Shown here in pieces: positions 1 to 54,704 of a DNA stretch of 64,000 nt. The stretch lies in NCBI RefSeq assembly GCF_056712565.1, contig NZ_CM160072.1; one strand, given 5' to 3'. A program made the position numbers and the translations under genes. The notes under the pieces were generated by a model. The model worked only from the letters and a program-made list of their open reading frames with translations. It was not told the DNA's origin and ran no database searches. How positions within the stretch are numbered: position 1 is the first letter of the stretch; every line of letters starts with the position of its first letter.

Positions 1-1125
<1,125 letters not shown>

Positions 1126-1170
1126 TCAACAGCGGAGATCTTTTAAGGATCTCCGCGCGACTAATAGAAT

Positions 1171-1200
1171 GCCTGATGCGCTACGCTTATCAGGCCTACA
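1171..1200. repeat. REP (repetitive extragenic palindromic) element
   Basis: GCCTGATGCGCTACGCTTATCAGGCCTACA consensus-like palindrome between srlD and gutM; a 9-bp-stem hairpin at 1132-1156 precedes it. Confidence 0.8.
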
Positions 1201-1230
1201 GGACTTCCGCCACTACATTACGGAGAAGTT

Positions 1231-1590
1231 ATGGTATCCGCACTCATCACCGTCGCCGTTATCGCCTGGTGTGCGCAACTGGCCTTAGGCGGTTGGCAAA
1301 TTTCTCGTTTTAACCGTGCCTTCGACACGCTATGCCAGCAAGGGAGGGTTGGCGTGGGCCGTTCCAGCGGGCGCTTTAAACCGCGGGTCGTGGTCGCTAT
1401 TGCGCTGGACGATCAGCAGCGCATCGTCGACACCTTGTTTATGAAAGGACTGACCGTCTTCGCCCGACCGCAAAAAATTCCCGCAATTACCGGCATGCAT
1501 GTGGGTGATTTACAGCCCGATGTGATCTTTCCCCATGATCCACTATCACAGAATGCTCTATCATTGGCGCTTAAACTGAAACGTGGATAA
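1231..1590 (+). CDS. gutM: Glucitol operon activator
   Basis: 119-aa ORF with N-terminal hydrophobic segment, matches recalled GutM length and sequence; position between srlD and srlR. Confidence 0.9.
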   Translation: MVSALITVAVIAWCAQLALGGWQISRFNRAFDTLCQQGRVGVGRSSGRFKPRVVVAIALDDQQRIVDTLFMKGLTVFARPQKIPAITGMHVGDLQPDVIFPHDPLSQNALSLALKLKRG

Positions 1591-1656
1591 TTTCGTTGTG
1601 AATGTTACTAGCTTGCGAAGTTATCATTTTGAAACCTAAATCAGGTAATCACGCCC

Positions 1657-2430
1657 ATGAAACCTCGTCAGCGTCAGGCCGCCATTCTGGAGTATCTACA
1701 AAAGCAGGGTAAATGCTCGGTTGAAGAATTGGCGCAATACTTTGACACCACAGGCACAACCATTCGCAAAGATCTGGTCATTCTGGAACATGCCGGAACC
1801 GTCATTCGTACTTATGGCGGCGTGGTGTTGAACAAAGAGGAATCCGATCCGCCTATCGATCATAAAACGCTTATCAACACCCACAAAAAAGAGCTGATTG
1901 CAGAAGCTGCCGTTGGTTTTATTCATGATGGCGACTCAATAATTCTTGATGCTGGCAGTACCGTGTTGCAGATGGTGCCCCTGCTCTCGCGCTTTAATAA
2001 CATCACGGTGATGACCAACAGCCTGCACATCGTCAATGCGCTATCCGAACTGGATAACGAACAAACTATACTGATGCCAGGCGGAACATTTCGCAAAAAA
2101 TCGGCCTCATTTCACGGGCAACTGGCAGAGAATGCCTTCGAGCATTTCACCTTCGATAAATTGTTTATGGGCACCGACGGCATCGATCTCAATGCGGGCG
2201 TAACCACCTTTAACGAGGTCTATACCGTCAGTAAGGCGATGTGTAATGCCGCGCGCGAAGTGATTTTGATGGCTGACTCATCGAAGTTTGGTCGTAAAAG
2301 CCCCAACGTGGTTTGTAGTCTTGAAAGCGTCGATAAGCTGATTACCGACGCAGGTATCGATCCAGCGTTTCGTCAGGCGCTGGAAGAAAAAGGGATCGAC
2401 GTGATCATAACCGGAGAGAGCAATGAGTGA
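1657..2430 (+). CDS. srlR: DeoR-family glucitol operon repressor
   Basis: 257-aa ORF with N-terminal DeoR-type HTH and C-terminal sugar-phosphate sensor domain; matches recalled SrlR. Confidence 0.92.
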
Positions 2431-3388
2431 AGCACTACTGAACGCGGGACGTCAGACGTTAATGCTGGAGTTGCAGGAAGCAAGCCATTTACCGGAACGT
2501 CTGGGCGATGATTTCGTTCGCGCCGCCAATATCATCCTGCACTGCGAAGGCAAAGTGGTGGTTTCGGGAATTGGCAAATCGGGCCACATTGGTAAGAAAA
2601 TCGCCGCAACGCTTGCCAGCACCGGCACACCGGCTTTTTTTGTCCATCCGGCAGAAGCACTGCACGGCGATCTGGGGATGATTGAAAGCCGCGATGTGAT
2701 GCTGTTTATCTCTTATTCCGGTGGCGCGAAGGAACTGGATCTCATTATTCCGCGTCTGGAAGACAAATCTATCGCGCTGCTGGCAATGACCGGAAAACCG
2801 ACGTCACCGCTGGGCCTGGCGGCGAAAGCGGTGCTGGATATCTCCGTAGAGCGCGAAGCCTGCCCGATGCACCTTGCGCCGACCTCCAGCACCGTGAATA
2901 CCCTGATGATGGGCGACGCGCTGGCGATGGCGGTCATGCAGGCGCGCGGATTTAATGAAGAAGATTTTGCCCGCTCCCACCCAGCCGGGGCACTGGGCGC
3001 TCGCTTGCTGAACAAAGTGCATCATCTTATGCGTCGTGACGATGCCATCCCGCAGGTGGCGTTAACCGCCAGCGTGATGGACGCAATGCTGGAACTTAGC
3101 CGCACCGGTTTAGGTCTGGTGGCAGTGTGCGATGATCAACGACTGGTGAAAGGCGTCTTTACCGACGGTGATTTACGTCGCTGGCTGGTTGGCGGCGGCG
3201 CACTCACCACGCCAGTCAATGAAGCGATGACGGTCGGCGGCACCACGTTGCAATCGCAAAGCCGTGCCATCGACGCCAAAGAAATCCTGATGAAACGCAA
3301 AATCACCGCCGCACCGGTAGTGGATGAAAACGGCAAACTCACCGGCGCAATTAACCTGCAGGATTTCTATCAGGCCGGGATTATTTAA
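2423..3388 (+). CDS. gutQ: D-arabinose 5-phosphate isomerase (SIS domain plus CBS pair)
   Basis: 321-aa ORF overlapping the srlR stop by 8 nt; SIS-domain motif ([14 protein letters not shown]) and C-terminal CBS region; matches recalled GutQ. Confidence 0.92.
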
Positions 3389-4899
3389 TCCTTCAGCCCC
3401 AGACGTTTCGCCAGCCGATGCAGGTTGGCGACGTCGGTTTCCAGCATCCGCGCACAGGCGGCCCAGTTGTGATGATTTTGCGCCAGTGCCTGACGAATGG
3501 TTTCACGCTGGAACGCTTCTGTCGCTTCACGCAGGTTTTGCTTAACAACGGGCACCGCCGCCGCTTCTGGCGGCGGCAACGTCACCTCAGGAAAAGCAAA
3601 ATGTTGCGCCTCAAGAATCACTTCATCGCCGCTGCGGGTGGCTCTCGACAATACTACCGCCCGATGAATAGCATGTTCCAGTTCGCGCACGTTTCCCGGA
3701 AAATTGTAGTGTTGCAGTAAATTTCGCGCTCCGGCACTTAATACCACGCGGGAGAGCCCCAGCCGCAAACGACACTGCTCGCAGAAATACCCCGCCAGCA
3801 GAATGACATCATCGCCCCGCTCACGCAGCGGCGGCACTGAAAGTGGAAACACGCTCAGGCGGTGGAACAAGTCAGCGCGAAATCGCCCTGCCAGTACCTC
3901 TTCGCGTAAGTCACGGTTAGTCGCCGCCAGCACGCGCACATCGACCCGCAAACTGCGGTCATCGCCAACGCGTTGAATATCGCCATACTGCAACACCCTC
4001 AGCAGCTTGGCCTGCAATGCCAACGACAACTCGCCGATCTCATCGAGAAACAGCGTGCCGTTATCCGCCATTTCAAACTTCCCGCTGCGGTTACTGATAG
4101 CACCAGTAAACGCCCCTTTCACATGCCCGAACAACTCACTTTCCGCCACACTTTCCGGCAGTGCGGCACAGTTGAGATAGACCAGCGGATTCACCGCCCG
4201 TGGCGAGGCTTCATGAATCGCTTTCGCCACCAGCTCCTTACCGGTTCCCGTCTCACCGCTAATTAAAACGTTGAGATCGGATGCCGCCACAATCTCAATC
4301 TCTTTTTTCAATTGCGTCATGCCAGGGGACAAACCAATCATCTGCGTCTGTTTCACCGCTTCAAACGGCGCGGCATCGCCTGGCAGCATATTCTGGCTTT
4401 CCAGTTGTTCAATCAGCAATGCATTGCTTAACGCTCCCGCCGCCAGTGCGGCAATCAGCCGTAGCTCTTCGTCGCTGAAAACATCGAACTGATCGGGCTG
4501 CATCCCGTCGAGCGTCAAGGCACCGATCAGGTTTTGCCCGGCAAACAACGGCAAACCAACGCAGGCGTGAACCTTCAGACTCTCCTGCCCTGGAATCAAA
4601 CCGTCATAAGGATCGGGCAATTCGCTGTCTGCGGGAAAGCGCACCACATCACCCGCGCGGGCAATCGCTTCCAGCCGTGGATGACCTTCCAGCGCAAAGC
4701 GTCTACCGAGTACATCCTTCGCCAGCCCGTCGATGGCAAGCGGAATAAACTGCCGCGAGTCGTAACGTAGCAACGCAGACGCATCGCACTCCAGCACCTG
4801 ACGCAGCGTGGTGATCAGGCGCTGAAAACGATCCTGATGACCAATCCCACGCTGCAATTCGATGGCGATATTCGCCAGCACATCAACGGAAAAACTCAT
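3385..4899 (-). CDS. norR: Sigma54-dependent nitric-oxide-responsive transcriptional activator (GAF-AAA+-HTH)
   Basis: 504-aa ORF with sigma54-interaction AAA+ motifs ([14 protein letters not shown]) and C-terminal HTH; divergent from norVW. Confidence 0.93.
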
Positions 4900-52390: not shown

Positions 52391-53428
52391 ATGTTTTCCG
52401 CATTGCGCCACCGTACCGCTGCCCTGGCGCTCGGCGTATGCTTTATTCTCCCCGTACACGCCTCGTCACCTAAACCTGGCGATTTTGCTAATACCCAGGC
52501 ACGACATATTGCTACTTTCTTTCCGGGACGCATGACCGGAACTCCTGCAGAAATGTTATCTGCCGATTATATTCGCCAACAGTTTCAGCAAATGGGTTAT
52601 CGCAGTGATGTTCGGACATTTAATAGTCGGTATATTTATACCGCCCGCGATAATCGCAAGAGCTGGCATAACGTGACGGGAAGTACGGTGATTGCCGCTC
52701 ATGAAGGCAAAGCGCCGCAGCAGATCATCATTATGGCGCATCTGGATACTTACGCCCCGCTGAGCGATGCTGACGCCGATGCCAATCTCGGCGGGCTAAC
52801 GTTACAAGGAATGGATGATAACGCCGCAGGTTTAGGTGTCATGCTGGAACTGGCTGAACACCTGAAAAATACGCCTACCGAGTATGGTATTCGATTTGTG
52901 GCGACCAGCGGCGAAGAGGAAGGAAAATTAGGCGCTGAGAATTTACTCAAGCGGATGAGTGACACCGAAAAGAAAAATACGCTGCTGGTGATTAATCTCG
53001 ATAACTTAATTGTTGGCGATAAGCTGTATTTCAACAGTGGCGTAAACACACCTGAAGCAGTAAGGAAATTAACGCGCGACCGGGCGCTGGCAATTGCCCG
53101 CAGCCATGGAATTGCCGCCACCACAAATCCAGGTTTGAATAAAAACTATCCGAAAGGCACCGGGTGTTGTAATGACGCAGAAATATTCGACAAAGCCGGT
53201 ATTGCTGTACTTTCGGTGGAAGCGACTAACTGGAATCTTGGCAATAAGGATGGTTATCAGCAACGCGCAAAAACAGCCGCATTCCCTGCGGGAAATAGCT
53301 GGCATGACGTAAGACTGGATAATCAACAGCATATTGATAAGGCACTTCCTGGAAGAATAGAACGTCGCTGCCGTGATGTTATGCGGATAATGCTACCGTT
53401 GGTGAAGGAGCTGGCGAAGGCATCTTAA
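52391..53428 (+). CDS. iap: Alkaline phosphatase isozyme conversion aminopeptidase
   Basis: 345-aa ORF with signal peptide and M28-type peptidase motifs. Confidence 0.93.
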   Translation: MFSALRHRTAALALGVCFILPVHASSPKPGDFANTQARHIATFFPGRMTGTPAEMLSADYIRQQFQQMGYRSDVRTFNSRYIYTARDNRKSWHNVTGSTVIAAHEGKAPQQIIIMAHLDTYAPLSDADADANLGGLTLQGMDDNAAGLGVMLELAEHLKNTPTEYGIRFVATSGEEEGKLGAENLLKRMSDTEKKNTLLVINLDNLIVGDKLYFNSGVNTPEAVRKLTRDRALAIARSHGIAATTNPGLNKNYPKGTGCCNDAEIFDKAGIAVLSVEATNWNLGNKDGYQQRAKTAAFPAGNSWHDVRLDNQQHIDKALPGRIERRCRDVMRIMLPLVKELAKAS

Positions 53429-53527
53429 TGGGTTTGAAATGATTACTCCCTTGCCTGCAGGAAATCAATGCCACCAGAAACAGAGTATAAAAAAGGGTGC
53501 AGGAGACCAAACCATCACAATTCAGTA

Positions 53528-53546
53528 CGCGGGGTTTTACCCCGCG
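53528..53546. terminator. GC-rich stem-loop at the 3' end of the hok-like gene
   Basis: CGCGGGG-TTTTA-CCCCGCG (7-bp GC stem) 6 nt beyond the hok-like stop on the minus strand and ~100 nt downstream of iap on the plus strand; no U-tract in either orientation. Confidence 0.55.
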
Positions 53547-53552
53547 TGGTGG

Positions 53553-53705
53553 CTACTTCTTCGATTCGTAAGCGAGAACTGCCTTAAACTCCATACCACG
53601 TTCTCTGATACTCAACTCACACAACGAGTCGCCTACCATCAACGTGAATCCCAGTACTGTACAACACAGTACGATGATTGCCACAAGGGCATATTTTGTC
53701 AGCAT
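53553..53705 (-). CDS. Hok/Gef-family type I toxin (HokE-like small membrane peptide)
   Basis: 50-codon [53 protein letters not shown]: hydrophobic N-terminal helix, conserved Cys in SLCEL, C-terminal AYE motif; GGAGG Shine-Dalgarno 7 nt upstream; GC-rich hairpin just 3' of the stop. Close by eye to recalled chromosomal HokE. Confidence 0.8.
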
Positions 53706-53912
53706 GTCTTGCCTCCCTGCAAAGAAGAGACTAACATCCGAATTGCTTAGGTTCGAACGTAGGCCTCAGGTTGATAGAAATATCGCCTGGGGCTTTTGTC
53801 CATCTGGAACCTCGCGAATGCTTAACGCCAGACAGCCTCAAGCACCCAATGCCATTCTATACCTGTTAATTCTCCCTGCGACGTTCTCGTTTAAATGCCG
53901 GAATGCTGCTCG

Positions 53913-53953
53913 CAAAATAAAAACGCCCCCATCATTTCTGACAGAGGCGTTTA
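53913..53953 (-). terminator. Candidate rho-independent terminator of cysJIH
   Basis: Minus strand AAACGCC...GGCGTTT stem followed by TTTATTTT, 17 nt downstream of the cysH stop. Confidence 0.6.
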
Positions 53954-53969
53954 ATTTATCCGGCAATAT

Positions 53970-54704
53970 TTACCCTTCGTGTAATCCACATTCCCTTTTT
54001 AAGCCAAAGAAACGCGTTTCTTCTTCCGCCATGCCGGGTTCCCATTTACGGGTTGTATGGGTATCGCCCACCGATAAATATCCTTCATCCCATAATGGGT
54101 GATATTTCAGGCCATGTTTTTGCAGGTACTGATAAATAGTTCGGTTATCCCAGTCGATAATCGGCAGCACTTTAAATACGCCACGCTGAATTGCCAGCAC
54201 CGGTAAATTGGCGCGGCTGCCGGATTGTTCACGGCGCAGGCCAGCAAACCAGGTTTGCACATTCAGTTCTTTCAGCGCCCGGTTCATCGGTTCGACTTTG
54301 TTGATGTCATTGTACTTTTCAATGCCTTCAACGCCCTGCTCCCACAGTTTGCCGTAGCGTGCTTCCTGCCAGGCGGCGCTTTCGGTAGCACGGTACACTT
54401 TCAGGTTGAGCTTGAGTTTATCCGTTAACTCGTCAATAAAGCGGTAGGTTTCCGGGAACAGATAGCCGGTATCGGTGAGGATCACTGGAATATCCGGGCG
54501 AATCTGATTCACCAGATGCAGACTCACCGCCGCCTGAATGCCAAAGCTGGAAGAAAGTACATATTCACCGGGCAGATTATCCAGCGCCCAGGCTACGCGG
54601 CCTTCAGCGTCCAGTTTTTCCAGTTGGGCGTTAGTTTCCGCCAGCGCCAGAATCCGGTCTACCTTTGGCAGTTCGTTCAGGGCGTTTAGATCGAGTTTGG
54701 ACAT
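53970..54704 (-). CDS. cysH: Phosphoadenosine phosphosulfate (PAPS) reductase
   Basis: Start at [12 protein letters not shown] (244 aa); the ORF track extends 51 codons upstream. C-terminal catalytic ECGLH motif. Confidence 0.94.

Follow-up and report, generated by a model that had tools for sequence, protein, structure and literature searches.

What occupies the interval between iap and cysH in an E. coli genome in which no CRISPR-Cas genes are found at this site, and has it taken the place of the missing immune locus? [quoted passage not shown] The borders of the interval had been given correctly, as both the open reading frames and the RefSeq annotation place the stop of iap at 53428 and the end of cysH at 53970, leaving 541 bp between the two genes. 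This segment is 100% identical to the corresponding one of E. coli CFT073, a B2 urinary isolate. The absence of a I-E system was likewise borne out: the 29-nt I-E repeat had zero matches in the whole 64-kb window even when up to three mismatches were allowed, and the list of open reading frames for the 541-bp iap-cysH interval held no cas-like ORF, cas3 as well as cse1 through cas2 being absent there. The hok gene is the sole annotated or credible ORF between iap and cysH.

Our analysis indicates that the locus is very probably the chromosomal hokX/sokX (HokG) type I toxin-antitoxin system of E. coli in its cas-less arrangement B, with CRISPR-Cas as the variable block of the region and hok not a replacement for it. 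That this locus exists, is called hokX/sokX, lies beside cysH and can coexist with cas-E1 genes had already been published and annotated. Almendros et al. (2014, mBio; PMC3903273) listed "a hok sok system" as one component of the iap-cysH region and described an arrangement B, typical of B2 strains, which consists of iap, short intergenic DNA, hok sok and cysH and has no cas-E genes, leader or array. An intact hokX in the cysH-iap region has been described for the B2 strain NRG857c (PMC7232551), and a study of urinary isolates from 2025 found hok together with sokX beside cysH in 90% of the strains and sokX alone in the rest (PMC12736100). The locus in the window is the same as this hokX/sokX, since it encodes the identical protein (WP_000956458.1/HokG) at the same cysH-adjacent position, and its layout is that of arrangement B. 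The features of the interval are collected in Table 1.

Table 1. Features of the iap-cysH interval and its borders (positions are those of the window)
Feature	Position	Strand	Basis
iap, 345 aa (alkaline phosphatase isozyme conversion aminopeptidase), left border	52391..53428	+	ORF and RefSeq annotation of the identical CFT073 stretch
Spacer particular to the cas-less arrangement	53429..53487		blastn distribution; no repeat-like similarity
Predicted full-length hok mRNA, ~359 nt, 5' GGGUGCUUGAGG to U-run past GCACCC	53489..53847	-	Rfam model start, cross-genus conservation limits, folding
fbi-like 3' element GGUCUCCUGCACCC, predicted to pair with the mRNA 5' end	53495..53508	-	predicted duplex -20.6 kcal/mol
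G+C-rich 3' hairpin CGCGGGG-TAAAA-CCCCGCG, right after the hok stop	53528..53546	-	sequence and folding
hok CDS, 50 aa (hokX in the literature; UniProt 'HokG'; WP_000956458.1)	53553..53705	-	ORF, Pfam, RefSeq, UniProt
Mok-like 12-codon upstream ORF, ending 4 nt into hok	53699..53737	-	ATG 53737-53735, TGA 53701-53699; conservation
Putative Sok promoter: -35 TTGCCT 53709-53714, -10 TAACAT 53732-53737	53709..53737	+	inferred from sequence and sokX 5' end
hok Shine-Dalgarno GGAGG, six nt ahead of the ATG	53712..53716	-	sequence; kept in 12/13 aligned sequences
Sok antisense RNA, homologue of K-12 sokX (b4701)	53745..53803	+	MG1655 ncRNA annotation mapped by 95%-identical alignment
tac-like 5' element GGGUGCUUGAGGCU	53834..53847	-	conservation; predicted pairing with fbi
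Putative -10 box of hok (TAGAAT), 6 nt ahead of the transcript start	53854..53859	-	kept in 12/13 aligned sequences
cysJIH operon terminator hairpin, then T-run	53921..53952	-	consensus scan
cysH (PAPS reductase), 244 aa as annotated in RefSeq, right border	53970..54704	-	ORF and RefSeq annotation

The relation between hok and the cas genes was followed through 5426 complete E. coli genomes by means of junction-specific queries. Some match to the 541 bp exists in 5425 of the 5426 genomes, and in 4144 it extends over 80% or more of the segment. The cas-less junction as in the window was found in 1120 genomes with the junction query and in 1128 with a more sensitive search for the spacer. If the segment marked the loss of the immune locus, as the initial annotation implied, it should co-vary with the absence of cas genes. 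It does not, as in 2263 of the 5426 genomes the 5' end of cas3, in its cas-E1 variant, is contiguous with the identical hok gene, and in cas-E1 strains cysJIH, hok, cas3 and casA follow one another in this order and in the same direction. The K-12-type junction was seen in 1180 genomes, in which the cas-E2 module runs up to the start codon of hok; the coding sequence has been lost, leaving just the leader and sokX. These K-12-type genomes, about a quarter of all, are the only ones that are without the hok coding sequence, and 5398 of the 5426 retain the sok/leader part. Since the coding sequence is missing only together with cas-E2 and present together with cas-E1, hok tracks the variant of the cas genes and not their absence. 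The remaining genomes are mostly IS-containing variants.

These counts bear directly on the proposal that the hok locus replaced the I-E CRISPR-Cas module or serves as an addiction-type stabiliser at that site, which we regard as extremely improbable. A replacement would agree with the window, where hok is the sole gene at the place at which K-12 has its cas genes, but the very same segment also stands beside intact cas loci, namely in the 2263 genomes in which the identical hok adjoins cas3. In addition, hok survives the loss of cas genes by way of IS elements. In BL21, IS421/IS186 lies within the 3' hairpin of hok, the cas genes have been lost by IS-mediated events and hok has been kept; in strain 3426 the same IS lies within the hairpin and cas3 is still there. 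When cas-bearing and cas-less genomes are compared, homology sets in precisely where the hok transcript ends, at its closing T-run, which places hok outside the variable block, and the order cysH-hok-iap is found again in other genera. As to addiction, the loss of the hok coding sequence in about a quarter of the genomes, against the retention of sok/leader in nearly all of them, is the asymmetry expected from addiction logic. It may, however, go back to one historical event, the cas-E2 replacement (PMC3903273), and would then carry no statistical weight; and the loss of cas genes has left hok/sok untouched, so that no penalty on this loss could have come from hok/sok. Thus hok is the fixed neighbour of cysH and CRISPR-Cas the variable insert, the reverse of the polarity first proposed.

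The assignment of the gene to the Hok/Gef family stands. All hallmarks that had been named for the minus-strand ORF at 53553-53705 are present, as it translates into some 50 aa that comprise a hydrophobic helix at the N-terminus, an SLCEL Cys motif of the (S/D)LCE type and an AYE at the C-terminus, and as it is accompanied by a GGAGG sequence and a GC-rich 3' hairpin. The Hok motifs are kept in all 13 same-position orthologues, save that Lelliottia has ACE instead of AYE. The Pfam model HOK_GEF (PF01848) matches the 50-aa ORF significantly and over the full length of the model (E=6.3e-10, 38.9 bits, residues 5-46 against positions 1-42 of 42). The curated cut-offs of NCBIfam were not reached (53 bits against 89 for the HokA equivalog, 39.5 against 73 for the Hok subfamily), which places the protein in a separate branch of the Hok family (hokX/hokG), as neither HokA nor another named equivalog; hokC/mokC and hokB/mokB of K-12 are its chromosomal paralogues. 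The expectation that the gene is probably missed by standard gene callers proved wrong. In CFT073 and in every further genome inspected the gene carries a RefSeq annotation as 'Hok/Gef family protein' (WP_000956458.1), and records of the exact peptide sequence come from at least 1000 contigs, one of its names being that of the UniProt entry 'Putative protein HokG' (HOKG_ECO57).

Membership in the family leaves room for the view that what is seen here is a non-functional relic in decay, comparable to the hok loci of K-12 and conserved only because it is young or because it hitch-hikes with cysH. Several observations would fit this view. The five chromosomal hok loci of K-12 were reported to be non-functional (Pedersen and Gerdes 1999, in the account given of that work in PMC7232551). 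In E. coli B and many other strains IS186/IS421 interrupts hokX within the 3' hairpin, and junctions with these elements show the hairpin at 53528-53546 to be an insertion hot spot in other strains. Furthermore, hokX is without known phenotype, and the NCBIfam scores lie under the cut-offs. In contrast to the copy of E. coli B, and to K-12, which at this locus retains only the leader and sokX in a region 95% identical to the sok region of the window, the copy in the window is intact, without IS, frameshift or stop. The same protein, without a single change, is encoded in different E. coli phylogroups and in E. whittamii. When hok was compared with its same-position orthologues in Kluyvera, Lelliottia and RIT691, dN/dS values of 0.05-0.11 were obtained, with dS reaching up to about 1 (Kluyvera), which shows that the Hok peptide is under purifying selection. 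In the same three comparisons the leader is 83-88% and the coding sequence 82-88% identical, whereas the flanks are only 46-54% identical on the cysH side and 17-41% past the 3' end, so that the transcript appears as an island of conservation that takes in the leader, tac, fbi and the mok-like ATG alike. Owing to this signal of selection we consider a relic unlikely, and the hokX copy in the window is real and, judging from sequence, probably functional.

The antisense partner was located with the help of both Rfam and the K-12 annotation. The hit of the Rfam family RF01794 ('sok') to 53690-53847 scores 112 bits, compared with a gathering score of 59, and no other Rfam family passes threshold in the window. 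As this match lies on the hok-sense strand, it is the hok leader that the model recognises, and the real antisense RNA is encoded on the plus strand. There, the region 53745-53803 is predicted to fold as a terminator-like hairpin with a U-run behind it (z -4.3). The complement of the GGAGG sequence (53712-53716) overlaps the putative -35 box of Sok. A consensus promoter scan returned no hok or Sok promoter and a single unrelated weak site inside hok, and the placement of both promoters therefore rests on conservation and on the 5' end of K-12 sokX. RNA-seq reads at sok_15/sokX have been tabulated for EDL933 (PMC5331693).

The ends of the hok mRNA were set by two lines of evidence that coincide, the Rfam model starting at 53847 and the conservation across genera beginning and ending at the predicted transcript ends 53847 and 53489. 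This predicted mRNA folds with a minimum free energy of -133.2 kcal/mol (z -3.97), with its 5' and 3' ends paired. The 5'/3' fold-back typical of hok mRNAs, which the minus-strand transcript had been supposed to form, was thus recovered: the 5' sequence GGGUGC..GAGGCU pairs with the 3' element GGUCUCCUGCACCC in both the minimum free energy and the centroid structure, and the first 12 nt of the transcript (GGGUGCUUGAGG) are invariant in the 13 same-position orthologues. When 38 nt are cut from the 3' end, nt 1-32 are predicted to fold into a local hairpin at the 5' end. In the R1 model the activated, that is 3'-trimmed, hok mRNA is expected to form such a 5' hairpin.

The fold-back is also conserved outside E. 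coli. Across 41 distinct relatives, members of the hok family drawn from other Enterobacteriaceae, the duplex between the 5' and the 3' end has a mean energy of -19.0 kcal/mol, compared with -10.8 ± 3.0 kcal/mol for shuffled 3' ends. In addition, a compensatory change is seen at U7, as a G stands ahead of GCACC in 9 of the 13 variants with a C at this position and in 3 of the 28 with a U. Conservation was judged by these duplex energies and by the contingency count, the bulge register of the second helix varying between relatives.

Upstream of hok, a 12-codon ORF had been described whose TGA overlaps the hok ATG in the manner of mok. The ORF exists, with its ATG at 53737-53735, but the TGA at 53701-53699 covers hok codons 2-3 and not the ATG. 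Its start codon comes 8 nt after the Sok-complementary region, a position relative to Sok that mok also takes in R1. The layout is conserved: in 26 distinct leader variants the upstream ATG is found at -32 with the stop at +4, and the stop is retained even where codon 2 of hok is changed, CTG to CTA going together with TGA to TAA. Sister subgroups have the homologous ATG in frame, at -33 or -36, which gives rise to an N-terminally extended Hok of 61-62 aa with a similar leader peptide (MLVSFLHGGNN...). This extended form resembles the annotated MokC and MokB. It is the difference of 1 nt in spacing, -32 and not -33, that puts the upstream ATG of the hokX subgroup out of frame and so produces a short overlapping upstream ORF. 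A mok-like layout would agree with this conservation and with the homology to the in-frame extensions, with the restriction that this conservation coincides with the -10 box of Sok (TAACAT) and with leader structure, so that coding constraint is inseparable from constraint on RNA or promoter. On these sequence comparisons, a mok-like reading of the upstream ORF seems reasonable. The mok of R1 is about 70 codons long and overlaps most of hok, whereas the frame found here is limited to 12 codons and ends 4 nt inside hok. A long frame of the R1 type was looked for by reading the other two frames upstream of hok, and the scan for ATG codons yielded only the 12-codon ORF.

In several respects the locus is therefore similar to hok/sok of R1, with which it shares a toxin of about 50 aa with a HOK_GEF domain, a cis-antisense Sok over the leader (here by homology), a predicted fbi/tac fold-back, a predicted 5' hairpin once the 3' end is cut back, and an upstream frame that overlaps the start of hok. 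The R1 system is the model of plasmid post-segregational killing, whereas the locus in the window is chromosomal and is known here from its sequence. If it works as its homology to R1 suggests, a transcript of about 359 nt, running from 53847 to about 53489, would be held translationally silent by the pairing of tac and fbi, until slow trimming of the 3' end takes off fbi and the 5' end refolds as a local hairpin. Ribosomes could then initiate at the 12-codon mok-like ORF, the end of which, 4 nt inside hok, would couple the translation of hok to it. Sok RNA (53745-53803, plus strand) would bind the leader immediately ahead of the mok-like ATG, block this ATG and trigger decay of the mRNA. Upon loss of Sok, the 50-aa Hok protein would be expected to insert in the inner membrane, and the membrane potential would collapse. 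For this strain we infer transcription, processing, coupling and toxicity from the R1 model, whereas the present analysis itself shows that the gene belongs to the family, that tac, fbi, the 3' hairpin, the Sok homologue and the upstream ORF are present and conserved, that the peptide is under selection, and how the locus is distributed among genomes.

To see how far the association with cysH extends, we scanned one genome per bacterial species, which gave 55 related loci, and typed their flanks by tblastn. The order cysI-cysH-hok-iap without cas genes was found in E. whittamii, in Escherichia sp. E1V33, in another E. coli, in two Pseudocitrobacter, in two Kluyvera and in one Lelliottia. The order cysH-hok-cas3 occurs in Escherichia sp. 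MOD1-EC7003, E. coli SCPM-O-B-8794 and P. vendiensis, and in E. albertii cas3 is found about 1.5 kb downstream of hok, on a contig that ends short of cysH. The conservation of hok and its same position across genera show that the association between hok and cysH is old.

The same may hold for the cas-less junction itself. Almendros et al. derived arrangement B from arrangement A by deletion (PMC3903273), and the cas-less arrangement could accordingly be a recent and simple deletion of the cas-E1 arrangement within E. coli. Besides being the published parsimony scenario, this agrees with the side of the junction next to hok, where cas-less and cas-E1 strains have one and the same sequence. The side next to iap is more difficult to reconcile with it. 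While the first 14 nt or so past the iap stop are common to other strains, the following 45 nt (53443-53487) were found in no cas-bearing E. coli when the 5426 complete genomes were searched with blastn, and a plain deletion cannot create them. The iap-side spacer is present in only 1128 of these genomes, each time in full length. The same spacer, with several substitutions, is found in E. whittamii and Escherichia sp. E1V33 (about 73-75% identity past the transcript); the 45 nt are thus absent from cas-bearing genomes and yet common to other Escherichia species, which adds to the published description of arrangement B. In Pseudocitrobacter, Kluyvera and Lelliottia, furthermore, iap ends within about 20 nt of the 3' element of hok, leaving no room for a scar. 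From the 45 nt, their diverged copies and the closeness of iap and hok in three genera, the cas-less iap-hok junction looks old, and a recent simple deletion appears possible but rather doubtful.

An old junction bears on the question of whether the ancestral site was empty or carried CRISPR-Cas. A far-reaching extension would be that hokX/sokX constitutes an ancient, fixed landmark on the 3' side of cysH in several enterobacterial genera, at the exact transcript end of which the I-E module has repeatedly been gained, swapped and lost, the toxin-antitoxin pair limiting the deletions that survive. We think this very unlikely to hold as a whole; if true, it would explain why events that remove cas genes nearly always stop at the hok transcript or take only the toxin while sparing sok. 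The failure of the replacement proposal guards against taking toxin-antitoxin loci beside missing defence islands for substitutes. Moreover, as the copy in the window is intact and selected, unlike those of K-12 and E. coli B, B2 strains might be a reasonable place to test the activity of a chromosomal hok. Beyond tidying the record the significance of these results is slight, the history of the 45-nt spacer being a modest refinement.

Some further candidates were considered and discarded. The 59-nt iap-proximal spacer (53429-53487) was examined for a vestigial CRISPR repeat by local alignment against the K-12 repeat and against the degenerate terminal repeat of BL21, with shuffled sequences as a control, and scored no higher than the shuffles. 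A match to the Rfam family ctRNA_p42d at 53912-53954 (24.9 bits, gathering score 50) corresponds to the cysH terminator and was taken as chance. A count of 1912 genomes with an IS-interrupted hok was not used, as it is inflated by similar junctions between IS186 and the hairpin at other hok loci; from a spread sample of genomes, the IS-interrupted share was instead estimated at about 5 of 40. Finally, the cas3-hok junction of GSH8M-2 is a rare variant that was found in 27 genomes.

[quoted passage not shown] The stop codon of this cas3 directly abuts the 3' end of hok, and a cas3-hok junction of this type occurs in only 27 of the 5426 complete E. coli genomes that were searched. The 45-nt spacer of the cas-less arrangement was recovered from 1128 of these genomes, exclusively cas-less ones, and diverged copies of it are present in E. 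whittamii and Escherichia sp. E1V33. When compared with CRISPR repeats the spacer showed no similarity to them.

The 3' hairpin of hok is the target of IS421/IS186, with one common insertion point in E. coli 3426, BL21 and E. albertii, and the insertion cuts the coding part of hok off from its fbi element. This interrupted class is estimated, from a spread sample of E. coli genomes, to make up about one eighth of them.

Coordinates of features at the hok locus and at related loci from other genomes (L-numbers)
Feature	Location	Position	Strand	Orientation
Third cas3 variant	L001 (E. coli GSH8M-2)	807-3503		inverted, convergent on hok
IS421/IS186 insertion point, hok 3' hairpin	window	~53532		
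Equivalent insertion point	L004	3501		
Equivalent insertion point	L009	~3828		
Equivalent insertion point	L019	~295		
45-nt spacer	window	53443-53487		
Rfam RF01794 match	window	53690-53847	-	
Rfam ctRNA_p42d match	window	53912-53954	-	

The loci from Pseudocitrobacter are L015, L016 and L017. In L015 and L017, Iap is only 80–81% identical to that of E. coli, yet CysH reaches 97–99%. The hok leader of L017 shows 98% identity; in Kluyvera, where Iap identity is 79%, the leader reaches 83%. The combination of a divergent Iap with a nearly identical CysH and hok leader suggests that the cysH-hok region was exchanged between genera or that a recombination boundary lies between hok and iap.

The Rfam model RF01794, denominated 'sok antitoxin', matches the hok-sense strand of the window, and its consensus ends with the Shine-Dalgarno sequence and AUG of hok. 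Since sokX of K-12 is annotated on the opposite strand, annotations derived from Rfam may have put Sok on the wrong strand. A weak match to ctRNA_p42d (24.9 bits versus a gathering score of 50) falls on the hairpin of the cysJIH terminator, and chance is its most likely explanation.

In related hok loci (L035, L036, L042, L046, L049, L052–L055, L058, L062 and L064) a conserved upstream ATG lies in frame with hok, giving extended proteins of 61–62 aa, and a 1-nt difference in spacing makes the same ATG open an overlapping upstream ORF of 12 codons in the hokX group. The conserved ATG has been lost from L033, L034, L047 and L063, where a 6-codon ORF starting at -14 takes its place. Tandem pairs of related hok genes, 0.5–1.2 kb apart, were observed at L029, L034, L035, L047 and L053, in genomes of Klebsiella, Escherichia and Enterobacter and at loci that do not adjoin cysH.
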